Below are positions 166 to 16,320 of a stretch of DNA of 21,351 nt, in pieces (the stretch's first letter is position 1; each line of letters opens with the position of its first letter). The stretch is taken from positions 1-21,351 of IMG/VR virus record IMGVR_UViG_2861043448_000004. One strand, written 5' to 3'. The DNA is from a virus (lineage: Duplodnaviria > Heunggongvirae > Uroviricota > Caudoviricetes). The notes beneath the pieces are model-generated. The model saw only the letters and a list, made by a program, of their open reading frames with translations. It was not told the origin of the DNA and did no database searches. The position numbers and the translations under genes are program-made.

Positions 166-408
166 TTAGTAACGCCAGCGGTCATAACGCTGATATTTCG
201 GCACTTTTGGTGCTTTAATCGCCTTAATAACCCACACCACCGCAATCGCCAGTAGTAACCACGGCAGCAACTTAATCATCAATGCCAGCATACCGCCGAG
301 GAACATAATGGCCGTCGCCACAACCAGCGCGGCGATAATGCCCAGCAACGAAACGCCGGTGACCATCAGCATGACAAAAAAGCCAAACACAAAAAGTAGT
401 TCCAGCAT
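166..408 (-). CDS. pspG: Phage shock protein G, small inner-membrane protein (80 aa)
   Basis: Translation from the internal ATG at 406..408 (MLELLFVFGFFVMLMVTGVSLL...KYQRYDRWRY) matches my recollection of E. coli PspG almost residue for residue; GGGAGAG Shine-Dalgarno precedes it. The 150-aa track ORF is an upstream over-extension. Confidence 0.8.
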   Translation of the reverse strand: MLELLFVFGFFVMLMVTGVSLLGIIAALVVATAIMFLGGMLALMIKLLPWLLLAIAVVWVIKAIKAPKVPKYQRYDRWRY

Positions 409-442
409 GATGCTCTCCCAAATATGAAATCTCTTGCTGGCA

Positions 443-459
443 TTACAAGAATCATGCCA
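443..459 (-). promoter_or_regulatory. Candidate sigma54 (-24/-12) promoter upstream of pspG
   Basis: Minus strand reads TGGCATGATTCTTGTAA, close to the sigma54 consensus TGGCAC-N5-TTGCW; pspG is known to be PspF/sigma54 dependent. Position relative to the start codon is plausible. Confidence 0.35.
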
Positions 460-541
460 AAAATAATCTATTGATTTAACAGCAAAATGCCCCGCGACGG
501 TGCGCAGGGCGTGGTGAATTTGACTACTTTTTGGTGAAAAG

Positions 542-1579
542 TTAACGCTTATCCGCCACCAGTTTGAGCGCGTGTTCCAGCACATTAATGTCTGCACCCG
601 CTTTATGGGCATTTTCACTTAAATAACGCCGCCACTGCCGCGCGCCAGGAATACCCTGGAACAAGCCCAACATATGCCGGGTAATATGGCCGAGATACGT
701 CCCCTGGCTGAGTTCACGCTCAATGTACGGATACATGGCGCGCACTACCGCCACTGGATCGGCATCGGTATCCGAGGAACCAAAGATCTCCCGGTCTACC
801 GCCGCCAGAATACCCGGATTCTGATACGCCTCGCGCCCGACCATCACGCCATCCATATGTTGCAGGTGTGCTTTGGCCTCTTCCAGCGACTTGATACCAC
901 CGTTAATCGACATTGTCAGATGCGGAAAGTCACGCTTCAGTTGATACACACGCGGATAATCGAGCGGCGGGATTTCACGGTTTTCTTTCGGGCTTAACCC
1001 CGAAAGCCAGGCTTTACGTGCGTGGATGATAAACATCTCACACTCGCCTTTGCCGGAAACGGTGTTGATGAAATCGCAGAGAAATTCATAGCTGTCCTGG
1101 TCATCGATGCCAATACGCGTTTTCACCGTCACTGGAATCGACACCACATCGCGCATCGCTTTCACGCAGTCGGCAACCAGCTGCGCATTACCCATCAGAC
1201 ACGCACCAAACATGCCGTTCTGCACCCGGTCAGACGGGCAGCCGACATTCAGGTTGATCTCATCATATCCACGCGCTTCTGCCAGCTTCGCACACTGTGC
1301 CAGCGCCGCCGGATCGCTACCGCCGAGTTGCAACGCTACCGGATGTTCTTCTTCACTGTACGCCAGGTAATCACCTTTACCGTGAATAATCGCCCCTGTG
1401 GTCACCATTTCGGTATACAGCAACGTATTGCGGGAAAGCAGACGCAAGAAATAGCGGCAATGTCTGTCCGTCCAGTCGAGCATAGGAGCAATGCTAAACC
1501 GAGAACTCCAGTAAGCGCCAGTTTTTTCAGGCATCACGCTGGTTTGATTAGTTTTCTGTGTTTCAGGATTATCGTGCAT
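542..1579 (-). CDS. dusA: tRNA-dihydrouridine synthase A
   Basis: 345-aa translation is collinear with E. coli DusA over the whole length (TIM-barrel Dus motifs such as [14 protein letters not shown] and [23 protein letters not shown]). The first ~30 residues differ from my recollection of the K-12 sequence, as expected if the prophage supplies a replacement 5' end. Confidence 0.9.
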
Positions 1580-1667
1580 TTTTGAACATTTCAGGCTATT
1601 TTTCTCGCGTTAGGTTCCCGCACAGGTTCCCACGCTTTATGGGAACCCGAAATAACGAGGTCGTGTA

Positions 1668-2765
1668 ATGGCGTACTATAACATAGAGAAACGACTAAAA
1701 TCCGATGGCACACCACGCTATCGCTGTAATGTGATTATCAAAGAAAAAGGTGTTATCACTTACAGGGAAAGCAAAACATTCCCTAAACATGCTCATGCCA
1801 AAACATGGGGCGCACAGAAAGTGATGGAATTAGATCTATATGGCATTCCATCATCAAATGCTGTTGACGGACTTACAGTCCGTGACTTACTACACAAATA
1901 TTTAAATGACCCAAATGCCGGAGGTAAAGCAGGCCGTACTAAAAGATATGTGCTGGAACTGCTTATGGATAGTGACATCTCCGCGATCAAACTATCTGAA
2001 CTGACAGAAAATGACGTAATTGAACATTGCAGGCTAAGAAACAACGCTGGTGCAGGCCCAGCAACAGTCAGCCACGATGTTAGTTATCTTGGCAGTGTTC
2101 TGGATGCGGCAAAACCTGTATACGGAATCAATTACACATCAAACCCGGCGAAAAGCGCTCGTCCATATCTACTTAAACTCGGTTTGATTGGTAAATCAAA
2201 CCGTCGTAATCGTAGACCAGCATCTGATGAACTGAACATGCTCATTGAAGGCCTTCAACAACGATCTACTCATAAATGCTCAAAAATTCCGTTCGTTGAT
2301 ATCCTCAAATTTTCTGTGTGGTCCTGTATGCGAATCGGAGAAGTATGCCGGTTACGATGGGAAGATCTCGACCAGGAACAAAAATCTATACTAGTAAGAG
2401 ACAGGAAAGATCCACGTAAAAAGGAAGGCAACCATATGAAAGTTGCCTTGCTTGGGGAAGCCTGGGATATCGTCCAGCGACAACCCAAAAAATCAGAATT
2501 CATTTTTCCATATAACAGCACTTCTGTTACCGCAGGATTTCAGAGGGTAAGAAGCAAATTAGGTATTAAAGATCTGAGATACCATGATTTGCGTAGAGAA
2601 GGGGCAAGTCGCTTATTTGAGGCTGGTTTTAGTATTGAGGAAGTCGCTCAGGTTACAGGGCATCGTTCATTAAACGTGCTATGGCAGGTATATACCGAAC
2701 TGTATCCGAAATCTTTACATAATCGTTTTGAAGAACTCCAAAGGAGCAGAAATAAGACCTCTTGA
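1668..2765 (+). CDS. int: Phage integrase, tyrosine recombinase (dusA-associated family)
   Basis: 365-aa ORF starting 88 bp upstream of and divergent from the dusA start; C-terminal catalytic region HDLRREGASRLFEAGFSIEEVAQVTGHRSLNVLWQVY carries the tyrosine recombinase H-x-x-R ... H ... Y signature; GAGG Shine-Dalgarno 7 nt upstream of the ATG. Confidence 0.9.
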   Translation: MAYYNIEKRLKSDGTPRYRCNVIIKEKGVITYRESKTFPKHAHAKTWGAQKVMELDLYGIPSSNAVDGLTVRDLLHKYLNDPNAGGKAGRTKRYVLELLMDSDISAIKLSELTENDVIEHCRLRNNAGAGPATVSHDVSYLGSVLDAAKPVYGINYTSNPAKSARPYLLKLGLIGKSNRRNRRPASDELNMLIEGLQQRSTHKCSKIPFVDILKFSVWSCMRIGEVCRLRWEDLDQEQKSILVRDRKDPRKKEGNHMKVALLGEAWDIVQRQPKKSEFIFPYNSTSVTAGFQRVRSKLGIKDLRYHDLRREGASRLFEAGFSIEEVAQVTGHRSLNVLWQVYTELYPKSLHNRFEELQRSRNKTS

Positions 2766-2813
2766 CACTGTTTATCCATACAGTTAAAAATAATACTGTA
2801 TACAAATACAGTG
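2762..2813 (+). promoter_or_regulatory. Sigma70-like promoter overlapped by two LexA (SOS) boxes
   Basis: TTGACA at 2762..2767; two CTGT-N8-ACAG boxes at 2768..2783 (CTGTTTATCCATACAG) and 2796..2811 (CTGTATACAAATACAG), the second a near-consensus 20-mer TACTGTATACAAATACAGTG; located immediately upstream of the dinI-like gene. Confidence 0.6.
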
Positions 2814-2825
2814 TAGGGGACTTTT

Positions 2826-3074
2826 ATGCGTATTGAAATCTGCATAGCCAAAGAAAAAATGACTAAAATGCCAACCGGTGCTGTGGATGCGTTAAAGGAA
2901 GAATTAACCCGACGCATCAGTAAACGTTATGACGATGTAGAAGTGATCGTAAAAGCCACCAGCAACGATGGCCTTTCTGTTACGCGCACCGCTGATAAAG
3001 ATTCAGCTAAAACTTTTGTTCAGGAGACTCTGAAAGATACCTGGGAGTCTGCTGACGAGTGGTTTGTTCATTAA
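2826..3074 (+). CDS. DinI-family SOS-response protein (prophage copy)
   Basis: 82-aa translation [11 protein letters not shown]...[11 protein letters not shown] resembles E. coli DinI (MRIEVTIAK...TWESADDWFV) end to end; AGGGGA Shine-Dalgarno 5 nt upstream; preceded by LexA boxes. Confidence 0.85.
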
Positions 3075-3105
3075 GTTCATCATCTCTGGACACCATTCAC
3101 TTGTA

Positions 3106-3134
3106 TTGACTTTAAGATCATTAAATTGTAATAA
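3106..3134 (+). promoter_or_regulatory. Candidate sigma70 promoter for the membrane protein-RT operon
   Basis: TTGACT at 3106..3111, 17-nt spacer, TAATAA(T) at 3129..3135; sits about 160 nt upstream of the ATG at 3297. Confidence 0.4.
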
Positions 3135-3296
3135 TTCAAAGGGATGGGGCAGGTTTTTCCTCTTGCGCATGCAAGGGCGGCTCTGATAATGAACAGTAAT
3201 ATTTTACTGTTGAGCTTATGCTCACTGATCCTGCCGGGCAGGATGTTCAACGGTTCCAATATATCCTGCCCCTTCCGCTTTTAAAAAGGATCTTTT

Positions 3297-3848
3297 ATGC
3301 ATGACAATATTTGGTTTACATATAAAGCACGTATCCAAGCGCACCATCGACTAGAATGGCTTGAAAAACACTCTCAATTTATCCTCGTTTGGTATGCTAT
3401 ATTGAGTGCGGTACTTTCAATTGTAACGTTGCGATTTCCAAAGGTTCTAGGAGATAATACAGATGTCGTTGCGGCGATACTTTCAGTGGCTCTACTGGGT
3501 ATTTCTCTGATCGTATCTAACCTAGATTTTCGTGGTCGAGCAATAGCCATGAGAAGGAATTATATTGCACTACAGCGACTCTATTTTGACATTACCACCA
3601 GTCAACAGTTATCTCTTGAACAGAAAGAAAAATATTTTAATTTGCTCAATGAGGTTGAGAATCACCGTGACATAGATGATAAAATTTCAAGGGTAACTCA
3701 AGTTGGACTTAAGACGAGGATCCCCACACAAAAAGAAAAAATAATTGTTATTTTATGGATATTACTTCGAATATTTATTACTGCCGCACTTTATATACTC
3801 CCATTAATATATCTTTGGATTGACTATGACTGCAAGCAGAATTTTTAA
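3297..3848 (+). CDS. Predicted multi-pass inner-membrane protein, partner of the reverse transcriptase
   Basis: 183-aa ORF with AGGA Shine-Dalgarno 6 nt upstream; hydrophobic helices FILVWYAILSAVLSIVTL, VVAAILSVALLGISLIVSNL and C-terminal IIVILWILLRIFITAALYILPLIYLWI; AT-rich codon usage unlike flanking genes; 3' end overlaps the RT start by 23 nt. Confidence 0.7.
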   Translation: MHDNIWFTYKARIQAHHRLEWLEKHSQFILVWYAILSAVLSIVTLRFPKVLGDNTDVVAAILSVALLGISLIVSNLDFRGRAIAMRRNYIALQRLYFDITTSQQLSLEQKEKYFNLLNEVENHRDIDDKISRVTQVGLKTRIPTQKEKIIVILWILLRIFITAALYILPLIYLWIDYDCKQNF

Positions 3849-5196
3849 AAAGTCATTCTCGAAAAAAAATCTTCTAAAAGTATACTCTGAAAAAATCAAA
3901 GAATCAGGAGCGATTGGCATAGATCGGATTCGCCCATCAAAACTTGATTTGACAATAAAAAATGAGATCACTTTCATTTTTGAAAAGGTTAATTCTGGCA
4001 ATTACAAATTTACAGCATATAAAGAAAAATTAATATCTAAAGGCGCTAACTCTACACCCAGACAGATTTCCATACCAACTGCTAGGGACAGAATTACTCT
4101 TAGAGCTCTCTGTGAATGCCTTACGGAAATATATCCTAAGTCCAGATTAAAACTACCACATACAGTAATTGACTCATTGAAAGAAGCATTAAACAACAGT
4201 CTATATGCTGAATATGCAAAAATAGATCTTAAAAGTTTCTATCCTTCAATTGAACATAAATTGATAATTAATGCAATAAAAAATAAAATTAGAAAAAAAG
4301 AAATTAGACAGTTAATAACATCATCATTAATCGTGCCTACTGTAAGTGGAACCACAGGAAGCAAAGGTATCCCTAATAATACCAGAGGAGTACCTCAGGG
4401 ATTAGCGATATCAAACATTTTAGCTGAAATATCACTATCTAATTTCGATGATGAAATCAATAAAATGCATGACATATGGTACATGCGATACGTTGATGAC
4501 ATTCTTATTTTAACACCAAAATATCAAGCAACAAAAATAGCTTCTCATATCATTGATAAGCTTCAATCATTAAATTTAAACCCACATCCATTAAATGAAG
4601 AGAACTCAAAATCCAAAGTAGGCAGTTTGGATGAAAGTTTTAACTTTTTGGGATACCACATAGAAAATCGAGAATTATTGATAAAACATGAGAGCATTCT
4701 TAGATTTGAGTCATCCTTAGCAAAAATTTTTACTGCATATAGGCACGCTCTACTACAAGCTAAAAGTAAGCGTGATAAAGAACGAGCTGTTGCATATTGT
4801 CAGTGGAAACTAAATCTCAGAATTACGGGATGTGTGTTTGAAGGTAAACGATTGGGATGGGTATCGTACTTCTCACAAATAACCTCAACAGCTCAACTTC
4901 GCTCTGTTAATCATACTATCAATAATCTTATCCGCCGATTCGGCCTTTCATCAGAAATAAAACCAAAATCTTTGATTAAAACTTTCTATGAACTCCGCAG
5001 AGGTAGAGCGGAGACTTTTAAATACATACCTAACTTTGACAATCTACATATATCTCAGAAACGAGAACTTGTTTCTATGTGGATAGGTAAAGAGAAGGAA
5101 AAAAAACTTAGCAATAGTGAAATAGAGAGGAAGTTTAAATTTAAAATTGCGAAATCAGTAAAAGAGCTTGAAGAGGATATTTCAGGAATATCATAG
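3826..5196 (+). CDS. Reverse transcriptase (defence-associated, non-retron motif pattern)
   Basis: 456 aa from the ATG at 3826 (track ORF begins at a TTG at 3820). RT motifs are all present: GIDRI, RQISIPTARDRITLRAL, YAEYAKIDLKSFYPSI, GVPQGLAISNILAEISL, YMRYVDDILIL (YVDD catalytic box), FNFLGYHI (FLG-type motif 7 rather than the retron VTG); about 170-aa C-terminal extension; AT-rich. Confidence 0.85.
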   Translation: MTASRIFKKSFSKKNLLKVYSEKIKESGAIGIDRIRPSKLDLTIKNEITFIFEKVNSGNYKFTAYKEKLISKGANSTPRQISIPTARDRITLRALCECLTEIYPKSRLKLPHTVIDSLKEALNNSLYAEYAKIDLKSFYPSIEHKLIINAIKNKIRKKEIRQLITSSLIVPTVSGTTGSKGIPNNTRGVPQGLAISNILAEISLSNFDDEINKMHDIWYMRYVDDILILTPKYQATKIASHIIDKLQSLNLNPHPLNEENSKSKVGSLDESFNFLGYHIENRELLIKHESILRFESSLAKIFTAYRHALLQAKSKRDKERAVAYCQWKLNLRITGCVFEGKRLGWVSYFSQITSTAQLRSVNHTINNLIRRFGLSSEIKPKSLIKTFYELRRGRAETFKYIPNFDNLHISQKRELVSMWIGKEKEKKLSNSEIERKFKFKIAKSVKELEEDISGIS

Positions 5197-5259
5197 ATAT
5201 GTAATCCATTAAGTCATTAAAATATATCGCAATAAACACACTATTTAAACTCACAAACC

Positions 5260-5300
5260 AGCCGCAGTATCCTGCCATGGCAAGTTGCTGCGGCTTTTTA
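5260..5300 (+). terminator. Candidate intrinsic terminator after the RT gene, possibly bidirectional
   Basis: AGCCGCAG (5260..5267) pairs with CTGCGGCT (5288..5295), inner palindrome TGCCATGGCA in the loop, followed by TTTTT at 5295..5299. Confidence 0.5.
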
Positions 5301-5303
5301 TGT

Positions 5304-5597
5304 TCAACGGATCAACAGCCAGATCAGAAGACACGCTACCATCGGCACAGCAAAATCCATCAGGCTTGCCACATCCCATGCGCGTGGATCAAAACCGCCC
5401 CACCACGGCATGTTAATCCGCTTGCCATGCCCGAACATTTCAATCCAGCGATATTATGCTTGGGTGTGTTCGCCCGCAATGAAGAACGTACAACTGGCTA
5501 TCGCTCCGTAAACCCAGTTTCCGGTAAAAAGCCCCACCAGTATCTGCGCAGCCACAGCACAAAGTGCATGAAGGAAAGGTGTTATACCCATTTTCAT
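5304..5597 (-). pseudogene. Small membrane protein gene interrupted by an in-frame TAA
   Basis: Minus-strand frame reads MKMGITPFLHALCAVAAQILVGLFTGNWVYGAIASCTFFIAGEHTQA, then TAA (5454..5456), then continues in the same frame YRWIEMFGHGKRINMPWWGGFDPRAWDVASLMDFAVPMVACLLIWLLIR to a TGA at 5304..5306. Hand translation; family not recognised. Confidence 0.35.
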
Positions 5598-5603
5598 CCT
5601 ACC

Positions 5604-5627
5604 CAATAAAACGGGGCGCACAGCCCC
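5604..5627 (-). terminator. Intrinsic terminator immediately after the tail fibre stop codon
   Basis: Minus strand GGGGCTGTGCGCCCC hairpin (5613..5627) followed by GTTTTATTG; lies 7 nt downstream of the stf stop. Confidence 0.5.
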
Positions 5628-5633
5628 TTAATA

Positions 5634-8477
5634 TTATTTAGAGGCAAGCGCCGCCTCAATTGCAGATAATCTTTGTTTTAATTCTGCGTTTTCTTCTTCC
5701 AGCGCGGTAACGCGATCATCTGTTTCACGGGCGACCTGAACAAGTAAGCCCGTCACGGCGGCGTAGTCAACATTCAGATAACGTGTTTCTTCACGTAATT
5801 CATTGCCGTCAACCGTTGGTCCCTGCAACTCTTTACCGTAATGAGTGAATGAGCCTACCGCTTCCGGTATTGCCTCCATTGCTTCCTGTGCAATAACACC
5901 AGCGTAAGGCAGTCCGTTTTCCTTAAGTGTGTAGGTGTACCCGTTCATTTTACGGATAGCTTCGGTTGCGTCACTGATAATCTGAATATTGTCTTTCAGC
6001 TCGCGGTCTGATAACTGATTCAGTGTTGTACAGTTAATAGCACCGTTTACATCAAACAGCTGACCTGACGATGTTTTTTGAGCATAAAACAGATACGCGG
6101 CAGACGTTCCAACCTCAAAAACGTTTTGTCGATCACCTGAACCCCACACCTTGACAGCAAATGGTAGTTCTGTATTACCTAAGTTCTGTAAAACAAAACG
6201 ATTGCCAGTCCCTGTTTGTTTTGTAAGAGTTAAATCAACAGTTGAGTTAACCTCATCCTTGTTGATAGTGAGCGCCTGCGCTTTAGCACCGTTAACAGCA
6301 CCTGTTTTGAGTTGAACCGCGCCGTCATTACCATTTAGCAGTATCTCAGCTCCGCTAAAGAAATTTTTTAGCGACAGCATCTTACTTACGCCGACTGATG
6401 AACCCAACGCCCACGCGAGAGAATTACCGGTGCTATCAAACCCACGTACAAAGCAATCCATTTTGCTATAGTCTGACGTGCTTCCAAGGACATCAATCCG
6501 CCCTCCGCCAGATTTTATCGGGTTAGATGTGGTTAATGACCTGACAGCAAGAGCGGTAGATGAATTGAGATCGTCTACTGTTAGTAATTTCTTCCATTCC
6601 TGCGTCGTTCCATTTTCAATTGTTCTTCCCCAAAAACCGGAATTGCGGCCTCCGAACTGCACAGCATAATTTTTACTAAATTGAACATGAATGCCGCCAA
6701 GAACCATAGAGCCTGCCGGGCCGTTTGTACTGCCTGCAATTGGTCTAAATTTGTCGACGTTATCAGTATGCTGAGCGTTCCAGTCTCGTCCTGTTTTTGT
6801 AAGCAGTCCTAATGTCGTGTCGAGCGCTTCGGTTAAAGTAAGGTTTTTAAATTTAACTGCGCTACTTTCGCCAAGACTTAAGTTGTTTCGCGCATCTTCT
6901 ACTGTTGTCGCACCTGTACCTCCTTGCCCAACAGCTAATGGCAACCAGCCAGTGCCATTATGACAACCCCACAAACCAGATTTGGAAACCTGTAAGCGTG
7001 GTGCGCCTGAAGAATACGTAGAATATACGTAAGTTGTTTCTTTTCCCTCTTCAACCCTTTCTGTTGATACATCTCTCTTCCATTCAGACCAGGTACCGCT
7101 ACCTCCTTCATATATTCGTCTATAAGTAATTCCCGGATTATTATAAGGGTGGTACACCTGAACGCAGGAAGAAGCAGTGTTGGCTCTCGTTTGGAGCACT
7201 ATTAAAGCGCCCGCCAGACCGATTGGGTAATTTAATTCTTCTGTTGCGTAAGCGCTCGTTGGTTGTTGATAGAAACCAGAATATTCACCGGTAAGGGTGT
7301 TTAGGTCAGTATTAGCAAGGCCAGCTTTTTGCTCATACATTACCCGCAAGTTCGCACGTGCTTGCTCGATAGTTCTTCCACCAGTACCACCCTGGGCTAA
7401 ACCTAACGGAGACCATTGTCCAGAAGAAGAATCATAAACCCCCCAACTCCCGTTAGTATGGATTTCAAAGAAACGATCACCAGTTGGACCATACATACGA
7501 GTTGTTGATTCATTTTGACCAAAGCGGCTTAATTCATCTCTGCGGGTATGACGTATCCATTGCGGGCCAGAACTTTGGCTGTAAATGTACGAATACAATG
7601 ATTTTGTATCTGAACCAACAAATAGACCGGAATATCTTTTTGTTGACACTTCTGATCTAACTATATAACCAGAAATAAGATTATCCCCGGCACTAGACGC
7701 TACTGATGGATAACCTTTCGCTGAGATGTAAATCCTGATAAATCCAATATAACCTGATGGCTCAACAGAGATATCAGTGCAGGTCATAGCAACTTCACCA
7801 AGACCAATATTGTTACCAACAACGGATTGTGCCTGGTTGCGATAATTAAGTGCGTCCGCTGCAGATTTCGCCGCGTTTGTTTCACTGGATTTAGCATTAG
7901 TTTCGCTGCTCTTTGCTGCTGCCTCGCTATTTTTCGCGTTGGTTTCTGATTTTTTGGCTGCTGTCGCGGAGTTTGCCGATGCAGTTTGTGAGGCCGCTGC
8001 CGCCTGTGCGCTGTTATCCGCATTCGTCTCAGACGTTTTTGCGGCCTTCGCGGAATTTCCTGCCGCCGTTGCCGAAGAGGCTGCACTACTGGCGCTCGAG
8101 GCTGCGCTCGTTTCTGATGATTTCGCTGCCTCTTTTGAGGCCGCCGCATCCCGGGCTGAGGTGGCAGCTTCTGACGCTTTCGTGGTCGCGGTGGATGCAG
8201 AAGTGGCTGCAGATTTTTGTGACGCTGCAGCATTCGTTTCTGACGTTTTCGCCGCACCGGCACTGGTAGCCGCCGCGCTTTTTGAGGACTCTGCAGCGGC
8301 AGCACTTTTTGATGCTTCAGTAGCCTTTGTTGATGCCGTTCCTGCGCTGGAAGACGCTGACTGAGCCGACGTCGCGGCCTGCCCGGCTGATGTGCTGGCT
8401 GCACGTGCTGAGCCTGCAGCATCAGTCGCATGGGTTCCCAGAGCACCACGCTGGCCGACTGCTCCGCACGGGTGCAT
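5634..8477 (-). CDS. stf: Side tail fibre protein lacking its N-terminal region, with C-terminal intramolecular chaperone (peptidase S74-like) domain
   Basis: Ala/Ser-rich repeats (SARAASTSAGQAATSAQ..., KTSETNA repeats) align with the part of lambda Stf that starts around residue 150 (from memory); two GQGGTG...ARxNL collar repeats; C-terminal LSDRELKDNIQ...VDYAAVTGLLVQ with ENAELKQRL coiled coil is typical of the self-cleaving chaperone domain. The first ATG directly follows the in-frame TGA of the upstream terminase fragment. Confidence 0.75.
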   Translation of the reverse strand: MHPCGAVGQRGALGTHATDAAGSARAASTSAGQAATSAQSASSSAGTASTKATEASKSAAAAESSKSAAATSAGAAKTSETNAAASQKSAATSASTATTKASEAATSARDAAASKEAAKSSETSAASSASSAASSATAAGNSAKAAKTSETNADNSAQAAAASQTASANSATAAKKSETNAKNSEAAAKSSETNAKSSETNAAKSAADALNYRNQAQSVVGNNIGLGEVAMTCTDISVEPSGYIGFIRIYISAKGYPSVASSAGDNLISGYIVRSEVSTKRYSGLFVGSDTKSLYSYIYSQSSGPQWIRHTRRDELSRFGQNESTTRMYGPTGDRFFEIHTNGSWGVYDSSSGQWSPLGLAQGGTGGRTIEQARANLRVMYEQKAGLANTDLNTLTGEYSGFYQQPTSAYATEELNYPIGLAGALIVLQTRANTASSCVQVYHPYNNPGITYRRIYEGGSGTWSEWKRDVSTERVEEGKETTYVYSTYSSGAPRLQVSKSGLWGCHNGTGWLPLAVGQGGTGATTVEDARNNLSLGESSAVKFKNLTLTEALDTTLGLLTKTGRDWNAQHTDNVDKFRPIAGSTNGPAGSMVLGGIHVQFSKNYAVQFGGRNSGFWGRTIENGTTQEWKKLLTVDDLNSSTALAVRSLTTSNPIKSGGGRIDVLGSTSDYSKMDCFVRGFDSTGNSLAWALGSSVGVSKMLSLKNFFSGAEILLNGNDGAVQLKTGAVNGAKAQALTINKDEVNSTVDLTLTKQTGTGNRFVLQNLGNTELPFAVKVWGSGDRQNVFEVGTSAAYLFYAQKTSSGQLFDVNGAINCTTLNQLSDRELKDNIQIISDATEAIRKMNGYTYTLKENGLPYAGVIAQEAMEAIPEAVGSFTHYGKELQGPTVDGNELREETRYLNVDYAAVTGLLVQVARETDDRVTALEEENAELKQRLSAIEAALASK

Positions 8478-9890
8478 TCATTCAGTGTTTCCTGCCGGAT
8501 AGCTGGCCGGATCAATTCGCTGGCTCTCCCCGTCGCTGTCACCGCGCAATGACTGCGTGATGTTGTAACGATCAATAATCCAGCGTTCGCCACGGCTGCC
8601 ATAGCCCGTTACCTGAACCACAAAACGGCGATGACGTCCCGCCTGCACATCCACTGTCGCCACAAGGAAATTAACGCCATCCGGCACACTGCGGGAAGGA
8701 ACTGGCTCTGCCCGCTGCTCAAGCAATTCACTTTTTCGTTGCTCCATGCTGGCGCGGGGAAGATAAGGTAATCCCCAGTCGGTATTGATAACCGTCTTGA
8801 GTGTCTCTTCACTTCCGGTTGTCTCGTATTCCTGTTCTGCAGTAAGCAGTTTGTAAACGAGTTGCGAGAGTGTCTGATAAGCAGCTGCCGGCCCCTCCAT
8901 CCAGAATGACGCAATACGTGAACGCCGGGGATCACCATAACGACTGCCATCTGCATTGATGGATTCACCATCCCGTAACCAGACCCCACGTCCGTTCAGC
9001 TCGCGTTTTTGTTCAGGCAAAATCCGTCCTGAACAGGAAGGACACTGAATATAAGCCGCCTCACTTGCCAGCACAGGATCGGCAATATCACGGAAACCAG
9101 CAACCACATCGCCGCAGGGCTGAAAATACTCACCACAGTGTGGACAGGGCCAGTACCAGCGACGGCGATCGCCACGGTTATAGAGCGACAGGATCCCCGT
9201 GGTTGGTGGAGCCTCATGCGGTGAAGTCCGTCGCCATTTCACATCCTTCACATCCCTGCCGGGGGAACTCTCCACCAGCGTCATACCACTGGACATAAAT
9301 GTGGTGGTACGTTTTGAGGCAAGAGAGAAGGCATCCCCCTCACCATCAATATCTTCCGGAAAACGGTCATAATCCGTCAGCGCCACGCATTTATAATCTG
9401 ATGAAGACATGATATTGACTGACGGCCAGCCGATTTTCAGGTAGTTGCCAGCAAGGAATGTTCTGTCATAAACGTTGTTGTCATTTTTGTTCGGACTCAG
9501 GCGACTGACCACTTCCGGGCTGACGCGAAACGTTCTGGCGAGTCGTTTTTTGGAGTGTTCGCGGGCTTTTTCCTCCGTCATCTGAATGATCAGCATATCA
9601 GCAGGATCGCAAATCACGTTGTAAATCACCCAGCCGTCAATCAGGCCGATAGTCTTGCCGGTTCGTGCCGGGCCAACAAATATCACTGCGTCGTATTCAC
9701 GCGAGGCCAGGCAGTTCATAGGCTCAATAACATACGGTGCCACCAGCGGATCCCACGGGACTGAGTTCCCTGCCCCCATGGGCACCCGCATATACTGAGC
9801 AACGGCATCAGCAACCCGCATTCGTCTCGGTGCGCGAAGGATATAACCTGAATCGGTTCGTGCTGCCTTTGCGGTTTCCTGATTCAGCAT
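8478..9890 (-). pseudogene. Terminase large subunit (GpA family), C-terminally truncated
   Basis: 470 aa against about 640 in lambda gpA; contains GPARTGKT Walker-A-like motif, zinc-finger-like WPCPHCGEYFQ ... CPSCSG and WIIDRYNI resembling lambda gpA ACPHCGEE and SWLIDRQII; start overlaps the small-subunit stop (TAATG) with GGAGGAG Shine-Dalgarno; ORF ends abruptly at TGA directly abutting stf. Confidence 0.75.
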
Positions 9891-10381
9891 TACTCCTCCT
9901 GCTGTAATTCCTCCTCATCATCCGCACCTGCTTCGGTCACCCGCAGGGCTATCTGATCGCGCAGATCATCAATAATGGACTGAACACGGCTCACAGCAGC
10001 AGGCTGCAGGCCGCAGTCACGTTCCAGAATATCCGGTAATGTCTCCAGCACCTGCACGACCGCTTTTGCCCAGATGGCAAACTCCCGTCTGACATCACTG
10101 GCCGGAATGAGTTGTGCCGTTTCCTGTTCGAACTTAAGACGCTCACGTTCAGACTGATACCAGGCTTTGCGTTCATGTGGATCCATTTCGCCCTCAGCAA
10201 CCGGCGGTGGTAACCCCATAAATTCAGTCAGAATATCGGTCAACCGGTATAGCTTGAGTTTGTCATGTCCACCAGCGGGACGAATGTTTTTCAGTCTTGC
10301 CACGACAGTCTGGCGGTGCAGACCAGATAAAGCCGCCAGTTGATTAATATTCAGCACCAGGTTTTTCAACTCATGATCCAT
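9890..10381 (-). CDS. Terminase small subunit (Nu1-like, N-terminal HTH)
   Basis: 163 aa; N-terminus MDHELKNLVLNINQLAALSGLHRQTVVARLKNIRPAGG is a winged-HTH resembling lambda Nu1; GGAGG Shine-Dalgarno 4-5 nt upstream; acidic C-terminus; translationally coupled to the large subunit. Confidence 0.65.
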   Translation of the reverse strand: MDHELKNLVLNINQLAALSGLHRQTVVARLKNIRPAGGHDKLKLYRLTDILTEFMGLPPPVAEGEMDPHERKAWYQSERERLKFEQETAQLIPASDVRREFAIWAKAVVQVLETLPDILERDCGLQPAAVSRVQSIIDDLRDQIALRVTEAGADDEEELQQEE

Positions 10382-10555
10382 ATTTCCTCCGGAGAGCTTT
10401 AAACATGCATCGTGCGAACAACTTTAAGAAAACGCGTTCGATGTCGAACAAAAAACACGCAATTCGACATACAAAAAACAAATAATCATTAATAATCAAT
10501 AAGATGTAAAGATGATGGTGGCCGATAAAAATGCAAAAACTAGCCTTTTTCCGCG

Positions 10556-10567
10556 ACGCTCCCGCCC
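10556..10567 (-). other. Candidate cosN cohesive-end site
   Basis: Minus strand reads ACGGGGCGGGAGCGTCGCGG, closely resembling lambda ACG-GGGCGGCGACCT-CGCGG (lambda cos recalled from memory); lies about 180 bp upstream of the terminase small-subunit start, as in lambda. Confidence 0.4.
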
Positions 10568-10998
10568 CGTGGCAGGCCACCCCACCGGGAGGACCCGTCA
10601 GCCTGACAGCTCTGACGAACGTCTGATACAACGCCTTGCATGAATGGCATCGGGATAATCCAGAAAGGCATAGCATCGTGCCCACAAGAATCTGTGTAAG
10701 TGTCCTGTTTCTTCCACCCCCGCACAGGACTGGCGAGCATGAGGGACAAACCCGCGAACCATAAACGCGGTAAAAACCCGGTGTGCATCGTTTTTGATTA
10801 TTCCCGCACACTCTCGCAGAAGGAGTTCCCCGTCGGGCTACGGTCTCTGTTAATACGGGAATACGGCGACGATACAGCGCATGATGTGTCAGGCTTGAAT
10901 ACCTTTATCCGTTAAAAGGGATATCAGTTAAATTATCCCGTGTAGGGTATAAGCCATTGTCAAAGACACTCGACATGGAATGGGCTTTGTAATAGCAA

Positions 10999-11020
10999 TA
11001 AAAAACCGCCCGGAGGCGGC
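10999..11020 (-). terminator. Candidate intrinsic terminator downstream of the 79-aa gene
   Basis: Minus strand GCCGCCTCCGGGCGG hairpin followed by TTTTTT (plus-strand A-run at 11000..11005). Confidence 0.45.
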
Positions 11021-11059
11021 ATTTCAAGTGTGACGTATGTTAGATCAAAAACTTAAATA

Positions 11060-11299
11060 CTAACTGTCGAATTTGTTTCGTAACTCCGGCGACAGTGACG
11101 ACCACCAGTTTATCGCTTCAAGTGCTTCTTTCTCTATATAATTTTTTTTATAGAATGCTTGCAATTGAGGTAGCACATTATCATGTGAGAATGCCTCTGA
11201 AATTTTGAAGTCTGCACCTAAGTGCATCGCTCCCATTTTCAATACCTTGAGATACCCATGGATTTCAGCATGTTTTTCAAAATCATCTAATATATTCAT
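11060..11299 (-). CDS. Hypothetical small protein (79 aa) between lysis genes and cos
   Basis: Intact ORF MNILDDFEKHAEIHGYLKVL...; followed by a terminator; family not recognised. Confidence 0.45.
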   Translation of the reverse strand: MNILDDFEKHAEIHGYLKVLKMGAMHLGADFKISEAFSHDNVLPQLQAFYKKNYIEKEALEAINWWSSLSPELRNKFDS

Positions 11300-11326
11300 T
11301 TCTTCATCCTTTAGTGAGAGCGCTCA

Positions 11327-11354
11327 ACATACTACATACTACATACTACATAAT
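11327..11354. repeat. Tandem heptanucleotide repeat (ACATACT) x3 plus one imperfect unit
   Basis: ACATACT ACATACT ACATACT ACATAAT read directly; spans the Rz stop codon and the upstream region of the 79-aa gene. Confidence 0.85.
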
Positions 11355-11807
11355 GCACTGGGTGACGATATAGTTCTGCAGATAACTAATCTGTTTAGTC
11401 ACTGTGACGATTCGCTCTCTAAGGGTGAAATAATCCCGTTCAGCGGAGTCATTAAGTCGGGGGCTGGTAACATCGCCCAAGCTGCCGGTGCTGGTCGCTC
11501 CATTCGCGGGACATCTGGCGTTGAAGTGCAGCCCACACTTGCCAGTGCGAACACAACGCTGCAAATCATCAAGCTGCTTTTTAGCATCAGCTAAGTCCTT
11601 CGTGTATTTGGCATCCAGAGCCGCTACATCACGCTGGCGGATCTGCATGTCTTTGATGGTGGCGTTCGCCAGTTTCAGTTCTCTGGTGTTTTTGTCGCGC
11701 TGCTCTTTGTAAGTCATGGCGTTATCCCGGTAATGATTAACAGCCCATGACAGACAGACGATGATGCAGATAACCAGAGCGGAGATAATCGCGGTTAATC
11801 TGCTCAT
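11346..11807 (-). CDS. Rz: Spanin inner-membrane subunit Rz (i-spanin)
   Basis: [30 protein letters not shown]... is near-identical in its first ~70 residues to lambda Rz; ATG at 11807 overlaps the upstream stop (ATGA). Confidence 0.9.
11399..11587 (-). CDS. Rz1: Spanin outer-membrane lipoprotein Rz1 (o-spanin), embedded in the Rz +1 frame
   Basis: 62-aa ORF wholly inside Rz in another frame; lipobox LASVGC, proline-rich [12 protein letters not shown] and PLNGIISP motif shared with lambda Rz1. Confidence 0.8.
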
Positions 11808-12178
11808 TTCTGCCCCCACAAACAGACTTCACGCTCAATCTCCCGACGAGTCATCAGTCCTTTCCATTGCTTACCGCCAGCGTATGTCCAGCGACGTAGC
11901 TGATCACACGCACCTTTGATATCGTCCCGGTTGATTTTGCGAAGAAGCGTCGATGTTCTGAAATTTCCAGTATCCGGAGGAAACAACACGATCTCCACTG
12001 AAGCAGGTGCCGACGTTGGTTTCGGCAGACGACGTAACTGCTCAACTATTGCTGCGCACGCCGCGCTCTGAAATTTTCGCCCCGCCTCGCTTATCAGGCT
12101 CTTACCAGCAAATGCCCCTTTGTTGGGGTGTCGCCAGTACGTGTTCACACTGGGCGGGAAAGGAAGGATCAACTTCAT
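11804..12178 (-). pseudogene. Chimeric ORF: RusA resolvase N-terminus fused to endolysin C-terminus
   Basis: Residues 1 to about 68 (LPFPPSVNTYWRH...VEIVLFPPD) resemble RusA (LPWPPSNNRYYRH...) but stop before the catalytic acidic cluster; the remainder [54 protein letters not shown] matches the C-terminus of a DLP12 RrrD-type lysozyme (from memory). Confidence 0.6.
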
Positions 12179-12501
12179 ACTTTCAGGCCCCTCTCATGTA
12201 ACCAGTGGGCTGCACGCAACCTGGCGTTCTCCTCACCGGCAAGCAGTGCGCGGATGATACCGACCGCCTCGCTGTCGTCGTCCTTCACTGCGGTATGAAG
12301 CGTGATCCCCCGGGCCACGCCACGCTTTATCGTGATGACGCCTTTTTTCTCCAGTGCGCGAAGATGCTCCACGGCTGCATTCACTGAACGGTATCCCAGC
12401 ATGGTTGCCACCTCCTGATTGGTTGGCAGAAAGCCACGCTCTTGCTGGTAAGAAATCAGAATATCCAGCACCTGCTGCTGGCATTGAGTTAACGTCGTCA
12501 T
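12175..12501 (-). CDS. LexA-like winged-helix DNA-binding protein with no peptidase domain
   Basis: 108 aa; MTTLTQCQQQVLDILISYQQERGFLPTNQEVATMLGYRSVNAAVEHLRALEKKGVITIKRGVARGITL parallels LexA residues 1 to about 70 (MKALTARQQEVFDLI...[30 protein letters not shown]); no S24 Ser/Lys domain follows. Confidence 0.6.
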   Translation of the reverse strand: MTTLTQCQQQVLDILISYQQERGFLPTNQEVATMLGYRSVNAAVEHLRALEKKGVITIKRGVARGITLHTAVKDDDSEAVGIIRALLAGEENARLRAAHWLHERGLKV

Positions 12502-13151
12502 GCCGCCATCTCCCTAACCAGTTTTTCCGCCTGCTGGCGAACCTGCGCCAGAAACGCCTCACCACATGCCTCAAGTTCATCGCGCCCGATGTAGCTGATT
12601 GCCGGTCCCTTCCAGGTCTTATCGAAAACAGCAATAGCACCAGCGAAGAAAGCGCCTGTCGGCACCTGCTTCTCATCCTTCGGGATAAACCAGGCAGGCA
12701 GTTCAAAACCAATACGCCCGCGAATAAAAGCAATATGGTCCGCATCTTCCGGCCACCACACTTCGCTGGTGGCAGCTTTGATCAGGAAAACATAGCGCCC
12801 ACCCTTATCACGCATGGCACTGGCATGTTTCATGATGTAACGCATGCCGGTGATGTATTGCCCCTCATGCTGACTGGCGCGGCTGTATGGGGGATTACCA
12901 AAGGCAGCCCCTTTAAGCTCCGCAAGACGTTCTGACCAGTCATGCGCCAGCGCGTTGTCTTCCGCCGTGTAATACGCAGCACATTTGGCGTTATCACCGT
13001 CAGTGAACAGATCCAGAACAAACGGGCCAAACAGGGTGTTAATTCCCCAGAAAATGTTGTCCGGCGTGCGCCACTGATCGCCCACTTCCTTCAGTTCATG
13101 GGCTGGTTTGTTCCGCAGTTCCACCAGCGCCTGGCAATATTTATTACTCAT
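12498..13151 (-). CDS. Phage Dam-like DNA N6-adenine methyltransferase (orphan)
   Basis: 217 aa from the ATG at 13151 (TAATG overlap with the upstream stop); NPPY catalytic motif in AAFGNPPYSRAS; no adjacent restriction endonuclease. Confidence 0.75.
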   Translation of the reverse strand: MSNKYCQALVELRNKPAHELKEVGDQWRTPDNIFWGINTLFGPFVLDLFTDGDNAKCAAYYTAEDNALAHDWSERLAELKGAAFGNPPYSRASQHEGQYITGMRYIMKHASAMRDKGGRYVFLIKAATSEVWWPEDADHIAFIRGRIGFELPAWFIPKDEKQVPTGAFFAGAIAVFDKTWKGPAISYIGRDELEACGEAFLAQVRQQAEKLVREMAA

Positions 13152-13639
13152 TAAGCCCCCACGTAATTCCCTGACAGATACCACTCATCACCCGGTACAG
13201 CGCGCTTGCTGCTTTTCCGTAAACACCGCTCACGACGCGCAAGAAAATTGTTTCGCTCTGGCTGGGAGTGGCTTTCACGGAATGCCGCCATCCACACCGT
13301 TGCAGCACGACGGTATAAGCCCCTCGACTCCAGTTCTTCCGCCTGGCGGGTCAGGCACAAAATCACCCGGGGATCGTTAGTGCCGACATAGAAATTGCGC
13401 ACAGGTCTGGTTTCACGAACTGGTTGCGGTTCCGCCTCCTGCGCTCTCTCAGTCAGGCGCGGGAAATGTCTGCGTGTATCCCCTTCACAACGGTGAGCCA
13501 CACGACCACTCTGACGTAACTTGCTTGCTGACTGCAGAACGCGCTGCCGTGAGTAACCTGCAAAAGCATCCGCAATGTCTCCGGAAGTACACCCCGGATG
13601 GGCTTCAATGTATTTCTGAACTTCATTCAAAAGACTCAT
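13151..13639 (-). CDS. Hypothetical phage protein (YfdN-like; PerC-like motif near C-terminus)
   Basis: About 162 aa from the ATG at 13639; segment LESRGLYRRAATVWMAAF resembles the PerC/Pch family signature (from memory); translationally coupled on both sides. Confidence 0.45.
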   Translation of the reverse strand: MSLLNEVQKYIEAHPGCTSGDIADAFAGYSRQRVLQSASKLRQSGRVAHRCEGDTRRHFPRLTERAQEAEPQPVRETRPVRNFYVGTNDPRVILCLTRQAEELESRGLYRRAATVWMAAFRESHSQPERNNFLARRERCLRKSSKRAVPGDEWYLSGNYVGA

Positions 13640-13641
13640 GA

Positions 13642-14460
13642 TCACCCCCTGAATCCTGCCGGGATCTGGCTGTAGTCCACGTTGTCGTAACTGGCTTTGA
13701 AGTACGGGTCCTCGCGTCTGGCTGCAGATACCGCAGGAACTTCCCAGGATTCTTCGAAATGACGATCCGGACCAAAGAACGTGACAGCCTGTTTCACAAA
13801 TTGTGTGCCGCTGTTACCCATCGCAGATACCCAGCCCGCGTAGCGTTTCACACCTTCCAGCATGGTTTCGGGGTTTACCCCCTCATTCAAACGGGCTTTC
13901 CAGGCTTTGAAGGCTGCAGATTTTGAATTGCCACCAGCACGTTTGGGATATACCAGCCATGCCTGCTCAAACTCCGGAGAGTATTCCGGTCGGTTTGAAC
14001 GAACTCGCACGGACTCATCAACTGATGCACCAACAGCTATTGGTTCATTGACTGGTTCTTTGACTGGTTCAAAAGAGTGACTGGTTCTGGGTGAATCTCC
14101 TGCACTACCCCCTGGTGCAACTCCTGCACTACCTGGTGAATTTGCTGCACCAGATAGTGAATTATTTGCACTACCCCCTAGTGAATCTCCTGCACCATCC
14201 AGATGAAGGAGATAGATATTACTTGAGTTACCTTTTTCACCTTTCCGGGTGACTTTTTTTACCAGCCCGGACTCACAAAGGGCCGCAATATGATTCATCA
14301 CAGAACGTTTGCTAATCTCGCACTGGTCAGCAATATGCTGGTAGCTGGGCCAGCACTCACCCTGATCGCTGGCATTATCAGCCAGCTTGATCAGAACCAG
14401 TTTTCGCAATGGATTACCCACTCGAATTTTCATCGCTTTAACCATCAGCTCCATACTCAT
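13642..14460 (-). CDS. Phage replication initiation protein (N-terminal HTH, repeat linker, C-terminal domain)
   Basis: 272 aa; N-terminal LRKLVLIKLADNASDQGECWPSYQHIADQCEISKRSVMNHIAALCESGLVKK is a replication-initiator-type winged HTH; low-complexity Gly/Ser/Ala/Pro linker encoded by DNA direct repeats; gene order matches the lambda O position. Confidence 0.65.
   Translation of the reverse strand: MSMELMVKAMKIRVGNPLRKLVLIKLADNASDQGECWPSYQHIADQCEISKRSVMNHIAALCESGLVKKVTRKGEKGNSSNIYLLHLDGAGDSLGGSANNSLSGAANSPGSAGVAPGGSAGDSPRTSHSFEPVKEPVNEPIAVGASVDESVRVRSNRPEYSPEFEQAWLVYPKRAGGNSKSAAFKAWKARLNEGVNPETMLEGVKRYAGWVSAMGNSGTQFVKQAVTFFGPDRHFEESWEVPAVSAARREDPYFKASYDNVDYSQIPAGFRG
14049..14200. repeat. Direct-repeat arrays inside the replication gene (candidate origin iterons)
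   Basis: Three copies of TGACTGGTTC (14049..14086) then about five imperfect ~22-bp units of GGTGAATCTCCTGCACTACCCCCT type (14090..14200). Confidence 0.5.
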
Positions 14461-14693
14461 GCTGCACCTCCGAGATGCTTCATGTTTTTTCCGGAGCGAA
14501 AGGCTATAAGCGGCATACTGACGCGGTAATTACGGCCCAGCGGTTCACAAATCACCTTCTGGCATTCACGGTCAACCAGGCTAACACGTAGAACATGCCC
14601 TGCAGGTGTGGTGTACCACTGCCCAACTGTAGGAATTGATGTTTTTTTACGCTGAAGCAAACGGCAAATATTGAGGATCAACGGATTAAGCAT
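14457..14693 (-). CDS. Hypothetical small phage protein (78 aa)
   Basis: ORF with ATGA-type overlaps to both neighbours in the early-right operon; no recognised family. Confidence 0.45.
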   Translation of the reverse strand: MLNPLILNICRLLQRKKTSIPTVGQWYTTPAGHVLRVSLVDRECQKVICEPLGRNYRVSMPLIAFRSGKNMKHLGGAA

Positions 14694-15522
14694 GACGATG
14701 CCCTCCGCTGATATTCAGGAGACGGTGAATATGAAAATTAGCCTTATCCGCCAGACGAATACGTTCAGCCTGCAAGTTAAGAAGGGTTTCTACCAGAACT
14801 TGATGCGCCTGCGGATCCGAAAGAGTTACCTTGCGCAGAGCACGTAGTGCAGTTGTTACATAACTGAGTTTATGTAAGTCTTCATCATTCAGACGAGTGA
14901 GGGCTGGGACAGTAGCCATGATGGCAGCCTCCGATAACAGTGAATTACCTTCACCACCGGAAACGCCAATTTCGCTGGTGGTGAACTGAACGGGGTTGGC
15001 GTAACCGGCGTTATCGGAAACCGGCGCACCTTTCGGTGCCCCCGTCCAGCCCACCATAATTTGGGTGTGCACAGACGCAGACGATAAAAAAGACGCTGGC
15101 GCGTCATATATCGCCGATAACATTTCCAGGACGCCAATCCCGGCACCCGCTTTATAAGGTGCCTGAACAGTGTAACGTCCCGGAATGGCAGAATCAATGT
15201 GCTGGTGGTCCTTCACACTCAACAAAATCACGCCTGAATTTCCACAAAGGACTAAAGCACTCATGCGGGTAGTCTTTGCGAAGATAGATAACGCGCTGTG
15301 TTTCTGGCTCCCAACGAATAACATGGACATAAAGCCCTCTTCCGTCACGAAACCAGCGGTTAAGTTCCTGCACAACTCGCCCCCCACAGTCAGGTAAAGT
15401 TCTCTGTGGTTACTTACAGCCAGGTGATTTGGTAATCTGCATTCATGCCGTAACAACAGGTGTTCAGCGACACTGACCACCAGCTGTTGCGACAAACGGT
15501 TATTTGCCGTTAAACTGTTCAT
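14686..15522 (-). CDS. Hypothetical phage protein (278 aa), possibly YdaU-like
   Basis: Long intact ORF, translationally coupled to the upstream gene; family assignment tentative and from memory only. Confidence 0.5.
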   Translation of the reverse strand: MNSLTANNRLSQQLVVSVAEHLLLRHECRLPNHLAVSNHRELYLTVGGELCRNLTAGFVTEEGFMSMLFVGSQKHSALSIFAKTTRMSALVLCGNSGVILLSVKDHQHIDSAIPGRYTVQAPYKAGAGIGVLEMLSAIYDAPASFLSSASVHTQIMVGWTGAPKGAPVSDNAGYANPVQFTTSEIGVSGGEGNSLLSEAAIMATVPALTRLNDEDLHKLSYVTTALRALRKVTLSDPQAHQVLVETLLNLQAERIRLADKANFHIHRLLNISGGHRHA

Positions 15523-16314: not shown

Positions 16315-16320
16315 ACAATA

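Follow-up and report, generated by a model that had tools for sequence, protein, structure and literature searches.

A probable compound deletion scar between terminase and tail-fibre remnants in a dusA-integrated lambdoid prophage of Escherichia coli

The cryptic lambdoid prophages of Escherichia coli K-12 (Qin, Rac, and DLP12) and the defective prophages of O157 Sakai have big deletions in their morphogenesis genes, carry terminase fragments beside stf/tfa, and keep the integrase together with pieces of the tail fibre. Loss of terminase and portal genes, with retention of tail-fibre and integrase genes, has been reported as the norm for incomplete prophages, in which tail-fibre genes are statistically enriched (PMC7744054). 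Integration at dusA has been described for the dusA-associated integrase (DAI) elements in a study of their integrase and att site (Farrugia et al. 2015, PMC4482086); the DAI study has no bearing on terminase/fibre junctions. An independent terminase-fibre fusion is present in E. coli 23CRST014, where a prophage beside potB contains an in-frame TerL(1-374)::Stf(66-end) coding sequence of 1,565 aa (WP_487539938.1). Among intact lambdoid siphophages, mEp460 (NC_019716.1) and cdtI (NC_009514.1) have terS (DUF1441), TerL, W, and portal DNA that is 97-99% identical to that of the prophage lineage considered here.

The window, which is the whole stretch of 21,351 nt that was analyzed, has a Dus gene (542..1579) and a tyrosine integrase gene (1668..2765) on its dusA side. 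Its closest counterpart, E. coli 035152 (NZ_CP101705.1), has a fragment labeled 'tRNA-dihydrouridine synthase, missing C-terminus' just past the position at which the window ends. DAI elements have this arrangement, in which a tyrosine integrase gene adjoins dusA and a short piece of dusA (here seen in 035152) closes the opposite end, and by these features the element is a dusA-integrated prophage. Both the integration site and the phage lineage differ from those of the K-12 and Sakai cryptic prophages, and for the dusA remnant, unlike in that comparison, sister genomes reveal the step-wise history directly. The window shares with mEp460 the same DinI, a 365-aa integrase (97%), and the gene order TerS-TerL-W-portal...L-K-I-J-lom-stf-(cargo)-dinI-int. 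In mEp460 coordinates, the breakpoints fall at nt 1917 in TerL (codon 466), nt 4164 in portal, and nt 19514 in stf (codon 143), and the window lacks ∼17.6 kb between the first and the last of these. The two also differ in that the L remnant of the window is of the lambda type (100% identical to lambda, ∼65% to mEp460 L), the window stf is just 88% identical to mEp460 stf, and the UG17 reverse transcriptase (RT)/SLATT cargo of the window does not appear in the stf-dinI interval as listed for mEp460.

The minus-strand open reading frame (ORF) at 9890..8478 encodes 470 aa and ends with the codons AAC ACT GAA TGA. The TGA (8480..8478) closes the terminase ORF, and the very next codon is the ATG (8477..8475) that opens a 947-aa fibre ORF (8477..5634), so that the motif TGAATG occupies 8475..8480 on the minus strand. 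The sequence-only reading had described this motif as the breakpoint of a single deletion joining terminase to tail fibre in one frame. The end of the 470-aa ORF, the TGA, and the adjoining ATG are positioned as that reading had given them. It is also true that the ATG follows the TGA in the same frame, but this mostly follows from how the ORFs were delimited, because the upstream bound of the fibre-frame ORF is the same stop; the shared frame is thus largely built in.

The interpretation of the junction as a deletion scar was borne out, but neither its position nor its simplicity was. Positions 8435..8501 of the minus strand are a 67-nt remnant of the minor tail protein gene L, corresponding to approximately nt 9-75 of L, in which the L frame encodes RQETLNECTRAEQSASVVLWE. 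Over the 63 nt tested (8498..8436), identity to lambda J02459 13440-13502, a segment inside gene L, is 100%. The full lambda L gene has 232 codons and the window keeps only 63-67 nt, which makes this a remnant rather than a gene, and the PGAP label in 035152 and AR434 is 'phage minor tail protein L, missing C-terminus'. The true breakpoints are at 8495-8501, where TerL meets the L remnant, and at 8435-8436, where the L remnant meets stf. The latter (8435..8436, minus strand) is the older junction and shows a 2-nt AA microhomology when 035152 is compared with both ATCC 25922 stf and mEp460 L. A one-step deletion from terminase to stf was considered and dropped, as 52-67 nt beside the breakpoint proved to be gene L. 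The junction is therefore compound, TerL(1-465) followed by the 67-nt gpL remnant and Stf(∼143-end), and, as read from the alleles, it took at least three separate deletions.

The TGA and ATG codons are both located inside the gpL remnant, in frames other than that of L. The TGAATG motif comes from the native lambda-L codons CTG AAT GAA TGC read in another frame and sits within TGAATGAATG, which gives a stop in both non-L frames. The pair would have no designed role and probably represents lambda-L codons 9-12 in a frame into which TerL ran by chance. With high probability (about 0.9), we regard 8435..8501 as a compound scar of deletions, without function, left in a mEp460/cdtI-like lambdoid prophage that is decaying in E. 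coli dusA, and we infer that both flanking ORFs are non-functional.

In the truncated large terminase ORF (8478..9890, minus strand), residues 1-465 are native TerL, and residues 466-470 (AGNTE) are encoded by out-of-frame gpL-remnant DNA. Up to residue 465 the protein matches the 700-aa TerL of strain 035152 exactly, after which the 235 C-terminal residues are gone and AGNTE stands in their place. The Pfam GpA_ATPase domain (PF05876) is complete, with residues 41-304 matching profile positions 2-247 of 247 (E = 7e-72). The GpA_nuclease domain (PF20454) is incomplete, covering only profile positions 1-116 of 294, compared to 1-294 of 294 in the 700-aa allele, and this identifies the protein as a truncated terminase, as had been proposed, rather than a full-length member of a shorter family. 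The adjacent small terminase subunit gene (DUF1441; 9890..10381, minus strand), a homologue of mEp460 gp01, is intact.

The fibre ORF (5634..8477, minus strand) begins with 14 codons of out-of-frame L DNA and then runs from approximately codon 143 of Stf to the natural end. Its homology begins at codon ∼143 of mEp460 Stf and codon ∼141 of ATCC 25922 Stf, and its DNA is 88-99.5% identical to stf of mEp460 and other E. coli prophages. The sequence-only estimate that some 150 N-terminal residues are missing was close: ∼142 are absent, among them the anchoring domain PF08400 (phage_tail_N), which spans residues 1-136 of mEp460 and ATCC 25922 Stf and has no match in the 947-aa ORF. The ORF retains the shaft with its Ala/Ser-rich repeats, the distal domain, and, at the C terminus, the S74 intramolecular chaperone (PF13884, residues 823-874), and a terminator-like hairpin (5613..5627, minus strand) lies just past the stf stop codon. 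Domain and allele comparison thus turned up neither a short full-length terminase nor a complete fibre. In identical DNA, PGAP annotates a 717-aa coding sequence (5634..7787, minus strand; WP_001753753.1, 'pyocin knob domain-containing S74 family peptidase') that starts at Met231 of the long ORF rather than at the ATG at 8477. Annotations of 11 public contigs include the 947-aa ORF as a gene, and 5/5 of those contigs that were read carry the ancestral portal-remnant junction.

The most recent step was evident from strain 035152, to which the 21.3-kb window is 100% identical apart from one 2,255-bp deletion. Window positions 1..8501 and 8495..15236 aligned at 100% to the 035152 locus (L003) with an overlap of exactly 7 nt, and positions 14421..21351 aligned at 100% with 0 mismatches, so the deletion is the sole difference over 21.3 kb. 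The overlap is the sequence TATCCGG (8495..8501, minus strand), the one retained copy of a 7-bp direct repeat, which joins TerL codons 464-466 to gene L nt 9-15. Both copies are present in the parental allele, at L003 6736-6742 and 8991-8997; the chance of 7 matching nt is ∼6e-5. Short repeats at both ends of the lost segment and a single copy in the derived allele are what a microhomology deletion leaves, and the event may have proceeded via RecA-independent microhomology-mediated slippage or illegitimate recombination. The interval present in 035152 holds the full end of the 700-aa TerL, W, and a 445-codon portal remnant and is colinear with mEp460 at 97%, which makes the window allele the derived one. 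The reverse order, an ancestral window allele with an insertion in 035152, was dropped, since the 2,255 bp by which 035152 is longer fill in TerL, W, and portal in an order colinear with mEp460. The comparison shows that the 2,255-bp deletion removed the last 235 TerL codons, gene W, and the portal remnant.

Earlier steps are shared. Outside the deletion, the dusA remnants of 035152, 2-101, and AR434 are 100% identical to the window in DNA sequence, and the portal'-L'-'stf and RusA'-'lysozyme scars are common to the window and to the dusA remnants of 035152 and its sisters. Allele comparison shows that an ancestor had already lost ∼8.7 kb, reaching from portal codon 445 into the first codons of L, and another ∼6.5 kb between L codon 25 and stf codon ∼143, and that the two losses left a portal remnant, 72 nt of L, and the truncated stf. 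By the same comparison, the 035152 lineage then lost 7.0 kb, including Q and holin. The junction of this 6,996-bp deletion (11971..11972, minus strand; RusA'-'lysozyme, common to 035152 by alignment to L002) marks the removal of holin, a DNA methyltransferase, two cargo genes, antiterminator Q, DUF968, and KilA-N. The ancestral portal'-L'-'stf junction was present in 16 complete genomes. The additional deletion from TerL codon 466 to L nt 9 is private to the window; its junction was found in 0/5,426 complete E. coli genomes (megablast of 8000..9000), the exact 470-aa protein had no record on look-up, and a 40-nt exact junction pattern had no match in JGI metagenome contigs or GTDB species representatives. 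The claim that everything between terminase and stf is absent holds for the portal, capsid, and tail genes, but not for the 67 nt of gene L; with the former lost, the prophage is unable to make particles, as the sequence-only reading had concluded.

In sister genomes, this dusA remnant has undergone at least four further secondary deletions, among them TerL524-stf (5 genomes), essD-portal (AR434), and YdaS-mid-TerL. In the 2-101 allele, another 475 nt of the fibre ORF is deleted. Because terminase is shorter and fibre longer in one allele than in the other, it had been considered that the window and 2-101 represented two independent large deletions from an intact prophage. This idea was dropped because 035152 displays the portal'-L'-'stf intermediate common to both, from which they derive by small secondary deletions. 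These genomes provide a base-pair-resolved nested deletion series (inferred ancestor, 035152, window, and at least three sister alleles) in which a lambda-like prophage erodes by short-homology deletions while the integrase, defence cargo, and distal tail fibre persist, an erosion pattern that agrees with published statistics on incomplete prophages (PMC7744054). This is ordinary prophage decay.

All known secondary deletions spare the int-dinI-SLATT-RT-'stf block, which could hint at selection on it. One explanation along this line is that the anchorless fibre, possibly with the DRT (UG17 RT plus SLATT), is a domesticated, host-beneficial gene under selection, with the junction as its upstream limit. 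At least five different deletions that leave the block in place, the intact stf 3' end with its S74 chaperone domain and terminator-like hairpin, and the enrichment of fibre genes in incomplete prophages (PMC7744054) would fit such a role. However, all carriers are 100% identical here, which indicates a young, clonal remnant with no time for purifying selection to show, and five events are too few to tell selection from chance or from proximity to the att site. The further loss of fibre sequence in 2-101 and the lack of an evident promoter also argue against domestication, which we regard as highly unlikely.

Antiterminator Q and the late-promoter region are deleted, which makes expression of the two ORFs doubtful. 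A terminator-like hairpin (GCCGCC-TCCG-GGCGGT plus a T-run; 11005..11020, minus strand; a consensus match only) lies 5' of terS, and this putative hairpin would block read-in transcription without Q. A promoter scan found fewer sites than in shuffled controls and none near the junction, and there is thus no case for an internal promoter. Should there be any transcription, low-level translation of the fibre ORF might occur, and any chimera arising by readthrough of the TGA would be rare and incidental. The terminase fragment, which retains the ATPase and a third of the nuclease domain, and the fibre without its anchor are probably pseudogene products with no role in particle formation. The AGGA motif, the intact stf 3' end, and the terminator do leave some expression possible, as a counterpoint to the scar reading.

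It had also been proposed that one deletion joined terminase to stf and that the TGA-ATG pair serves translational coupling or readthrough to a terminase-fibre chimera. This is physically possible, as the ORFs abut in matching frames and AGGA lies 8 nt 5' of the ATG at 8477, and the 23CRST014 fusion implies that such chimeras can be encoded. The 23CRST014 prophage is related (TerL 98%) and has likewise undergone a mid-TerL-to-stf deletion, with an 8-nt junction overlap, but it differs in having a direct TerL-stf join with no L remnant and no stop and in keeping half of PF08400. In the window, the 67-nt gene L remnant that contains both TGA and ATG stands between the two genes, and a junction built in at least three steps is at odds with a single fusion event. 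In the ancestral allele, the portal-remnant ORF ends within the same TGAATGAATG, at the neighbouring TGA, and this shows the pair to be a by-product of L sequence. Programmed coupling or readthrough would be recognized by a stop/start pair conserved among diverged relatives and by expression of the upstream ORF; the junction occurs in no other sequence searched, which implies no history of conservation. Together with the loss of Q and the late promoter, the upstream hairpin, and the absence of a nearby promoter, these observations leave the proposal unsupported on sequence grounds and its likelihood very remote. The value of the analysis is mainly corrective, in that a striking stop-start arrangement appears to be an accident of a tail-gene fragment and no regulatory device.

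A variant combining both ideas holds that the fibre (shaft, distal receptor-binding part, and S74), which lies beside the UG17 DRT/SLATT defence pair, is a host-serving gene coupled through TGA-ATG to the terminase fragment. Such a protein might, for instance, mask receptors, act in exclusion, or serve as a surface adhesin, and its existence would explain why at least five independent secondary deletions stopped short of the fibre; we consider it a very long shot.

Finally, an assembly or cloning artefact in a source strain that carries the 035152-type allele would account for a junction seen nowhere else in the collections searched within a window otherwise identical to 035152, but we give it next to no credence, as the 7-bp repeat is far too short for assemblers to join or collapse across, the flanks are error-free over 21 kb, a short direct repeat at the breakpoints is the classic mark of a real spontaneous deletion, and sister strains carry comparable real deletions with 2-nt microhomologies.

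Two open reading frames (ORFs) abut on the minus strand, which carries all genes of the terminase-fibre junction: a truncated large terminase (TerL) of 470 aa (9890..8478), which ends in AAC ACT GAA TGA with the TGA at 8480..8478, and a side tail fibre (Stf) ORF of 947 aa (8477..5634), whose ATG (8477..8475) is the triplet directly after that stop. The coordinates, lengths and shared frame had been given correctly in a sequence-only reading, which interpreted the junction as a deletion scar between two truncated genes in a prophage unable to form particles. In the PGAP annotation of identical DNA in other genomes, the fibre coding sequence starts at Met231, giving a protein of 717 aa.

Comparison of both proteins with domain profiles and homologues confirmed the truncations; the terminase is not a full-length member of a shorter family, nor is the fibre complete. 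The GpA ATPase domain of the 470-aa terminase is complete, and only positions 1-116 of the 294 in the GpA nuclease profile are covered. TerL of E. coli 035152 (NZ_CP101705.1), which has a sister dusA remnant, is 700 aa long with a nuclease domain covering 1-294/294, and its DNA continues sequence identical to that of the window. The two proteins are identical to residue 465, after which the window reads AGNTE-stop and the full protein EDWDVLL. At its C-terminus the fibre ORF retains the S74 chaperone domain, and no match to the PF08400 'prophage tail fibre N-terminal' domain was detected in its 947 aa. PF08400 occupies residues 1-136 in the full-length Stf homologues of phage mEp460, an intact relative, and E. 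coli ATCC 25922; homology to the window fibre starts at nt 429 (codon ~143) of mEp460 stf and at codon ~141 of ATCC 25922 stf.

The scar, the two truncations and the death of the prophage thus stand, but the proposed anatomy was wrong, because the scar is compound and a remnant of gene L supplies the TGA-ATG. Within gene L, lambda J02459 13440-13502 matches window 8498..8436 at 100% identity; the L-frame translation of this stretch is RQETLNECTRAEQSASVVLWE. A search with 8250..8491 recovered 16 genomes at 100% identity, where the annotation 'phage minor tail protein L, missing C-terminus' covers the first ~50 nt. Both the TGA and the ATG lie within this remnant and arise when CTG AAT GAA TGC, native to gene L, is read with the frame shifted by one base. 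In both non-L frames, the gene-L sequence TGAATGAATG (window 8471..8480, minus strand) has a stop, a TGA just ahead of an ATG. The truncated TerL of the window ends at its second TGA; the first, 4 nt ahead of the same ATG, is where a truncated portal ORF stops in the ancestral allele. L DNA, again out of frame, also makes up codons 1-14 of the 947-aa 'fibre' (MHPCGAVGQRGALG). Another ORF, of 272 aa (7784..8602, minus strand), uses the gene-L frame: it begins within the TerL remnant, crosses the L remnant and reads on across the Ala/Ser-rich repeats of stf in a frame other than that of the fibre. It has the look of a by-product of these GC-rich, low-complexity repeats and not of a real gene.

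Over 21.3 kb the window is 100% identical to 035152, with zero mismatches, except for one 2,255-bp deletion. Window 1..8501 corresponds to 17491..8991 of the 035152 stretch compared and window 8495..15236 to 6742..1, the alignments overlapping by 7 nt, TATCCGG. In 035152 this repeat occurs twice, once in TerL (6736-6742) and once where the L remnant begins (8991-8997); the window retains one copy (8495..8501). The deletion has the signature of a microhomology-mediated event and was presumably generated by that mechanism. In 035152 the deleted interval contains TerL codons 466-700, gene W and a 445-codon portal remnant. The interval is colinear with mEp460 at 97%, which marks the window allele as derived.

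Two older scars are common to 035152 and 15 other complete genomes. One joins portal nt 4164 to L nt ~9 at a 2-nt TA microhomology, with loss of ~8.7 kb in mEp460 coordinates (the rest of portal, protease/scaffold, head, tail tube, tape measure and M). The other joins L nt ~75 to stf codon ~143 at a 2-nt AA microhomology, with loss of ~6.5 kb (the remainder of L plus K, I, J, lom and the stf 5' end). In the same coordinates, the total loss from the TerL breakpoint to that in stf amounts to ~17.6 kb. As the sequence-only reading held, the prophage cannot form particles, since portal, head and tail genes are among the deleted stretches. A further 6,996-bp deletion, also common with 035152, produced a RusA'-'lysozyme fusion on the minus strand (11971..11972) with a 2-nt overlap at the junction and removed the holin, a DNA methyltransferase, two cargo genes (a nucleoid-associated protein gene and its neighbour), antiterminator Q, DUF968 and KilA-N.

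The TerL-L junction was found nowhere else. A megablast of window 8000..9000 against 5,426 complete E. coli genomes returned thousands of partial matches and none across the junction, terminase identity ending at 8492. The exact 470-aa protein was absent from the gene-position collection, the 40-nt exact junction sequence had no match in metagenome or species-representative contigs, and none of the five public contigs with the 947-aa ORF that were read contained the junction. The deletion is therefore recent and private. That the junction is an artefact of the sequence is far less probable, since assemblers are not misled by a repeat of 7 bp.

The same dusA remnant has undergone at least four further, different secondary deletions (between YdaS and mid-TerL, essD and mid-portal, TerL524 and stf, and RusA and lysozyme). 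Five complete genomes have the 2-101 type allele, in which 2,554 bp are lost from TerL codon 524 to within stf at a TA microhomology; in AR434 the deletion runs from the holin (essD) to mid-portal; and in at least three public contigs it runs from the YdaS-like gene to mid-TerL. All of these spared the att-proximal block int-dinI-SLATT-RT-'stf next to dusA.

Expression of the terminase-fibre pair is doubtful, because antiterminator Q and the region that holds the late promoter in lambdoid phages are both deleted, a terminator-like hairpin (11020..11005, minus strand) lies upstream of terS, the small terminase gene, and a promoter scan found no promoter near the junction. Given a transcript, re-initiation or rare UGA readthrough would be physically possible, since AGGA lies 8 nt upstream of the ATG at 8477 and the frames of the two ORFs match. 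Since the TGA-ATG is a by-product of the gene-L remnant and is not conserved, nothing argues for a functional role, and the earlier suggestion of coupling or readthrough is unsupported.

A terminase fragment beside a tail-fibre fragment is a typical deletion product in cryptic lambdoid prophages, such as Qin, Rac and DLP12. An independent in-frame fusion is present in E. coli 23CRST014, in a prophage beside potB (3086..7783 of the sequence compared): a 1,565-aa coding sequence, TerL(1-374)::Stf(~66-end), named 'terminase gpA endonuclease subunit' by PGAP, with an 8-nt overlap of the parental sequences where they join. Integrated at dusA, the window element is a lambdoid prophage of mEp460/cdtI type; its integrase adjoining dusA fits the DAI class (PMC4482086). 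According to large-scale surveys, the genes preferentially lost from incomplete prophages are those for terminase, portal and lysis, and tail-fibre and integrase genes are enriched in them (PMC7744054); exactly this pattern is seen at the present locus. The junction is a familiar case of ordinary prophage decay and thus of low interest.

Retention by selection of the consistently spared, anchorless fibre beside its neighbouring cargo is a possible but unlikely reading, and all carriers are identical in sequence. PADLOC identified a 183-aa SLATT_5 protein overlapping a 458-aa reverse transcriptase (3297..5196, plus strand) as RT-associated SLATT (E = 1.5e-56) and RT_UG17 (E = 1e-158), by which criteria the two form a predicted DRT-type defence pair, carried between stf and dinI/int, where mEp460 has no listed SLATT/RT genes. 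Between the reverse transcriptase and the stf stop, a 110-aa ORF (5277..5609, plus strand) had no Pfam or PADLOC match; the opposite strand of identical DNA carries, in the PGAP annotation, a 'hypothetical protein, internal stop' pseudogene. Near the far prophage end (20307..21351, minus strand), a 182-aa ORF precedes one of 157 aa, which reaches the window end and is annotated in identical 035152 DNA as a Panacea domain-containing protein; this pair may be a toxin-antitoxin-like system.
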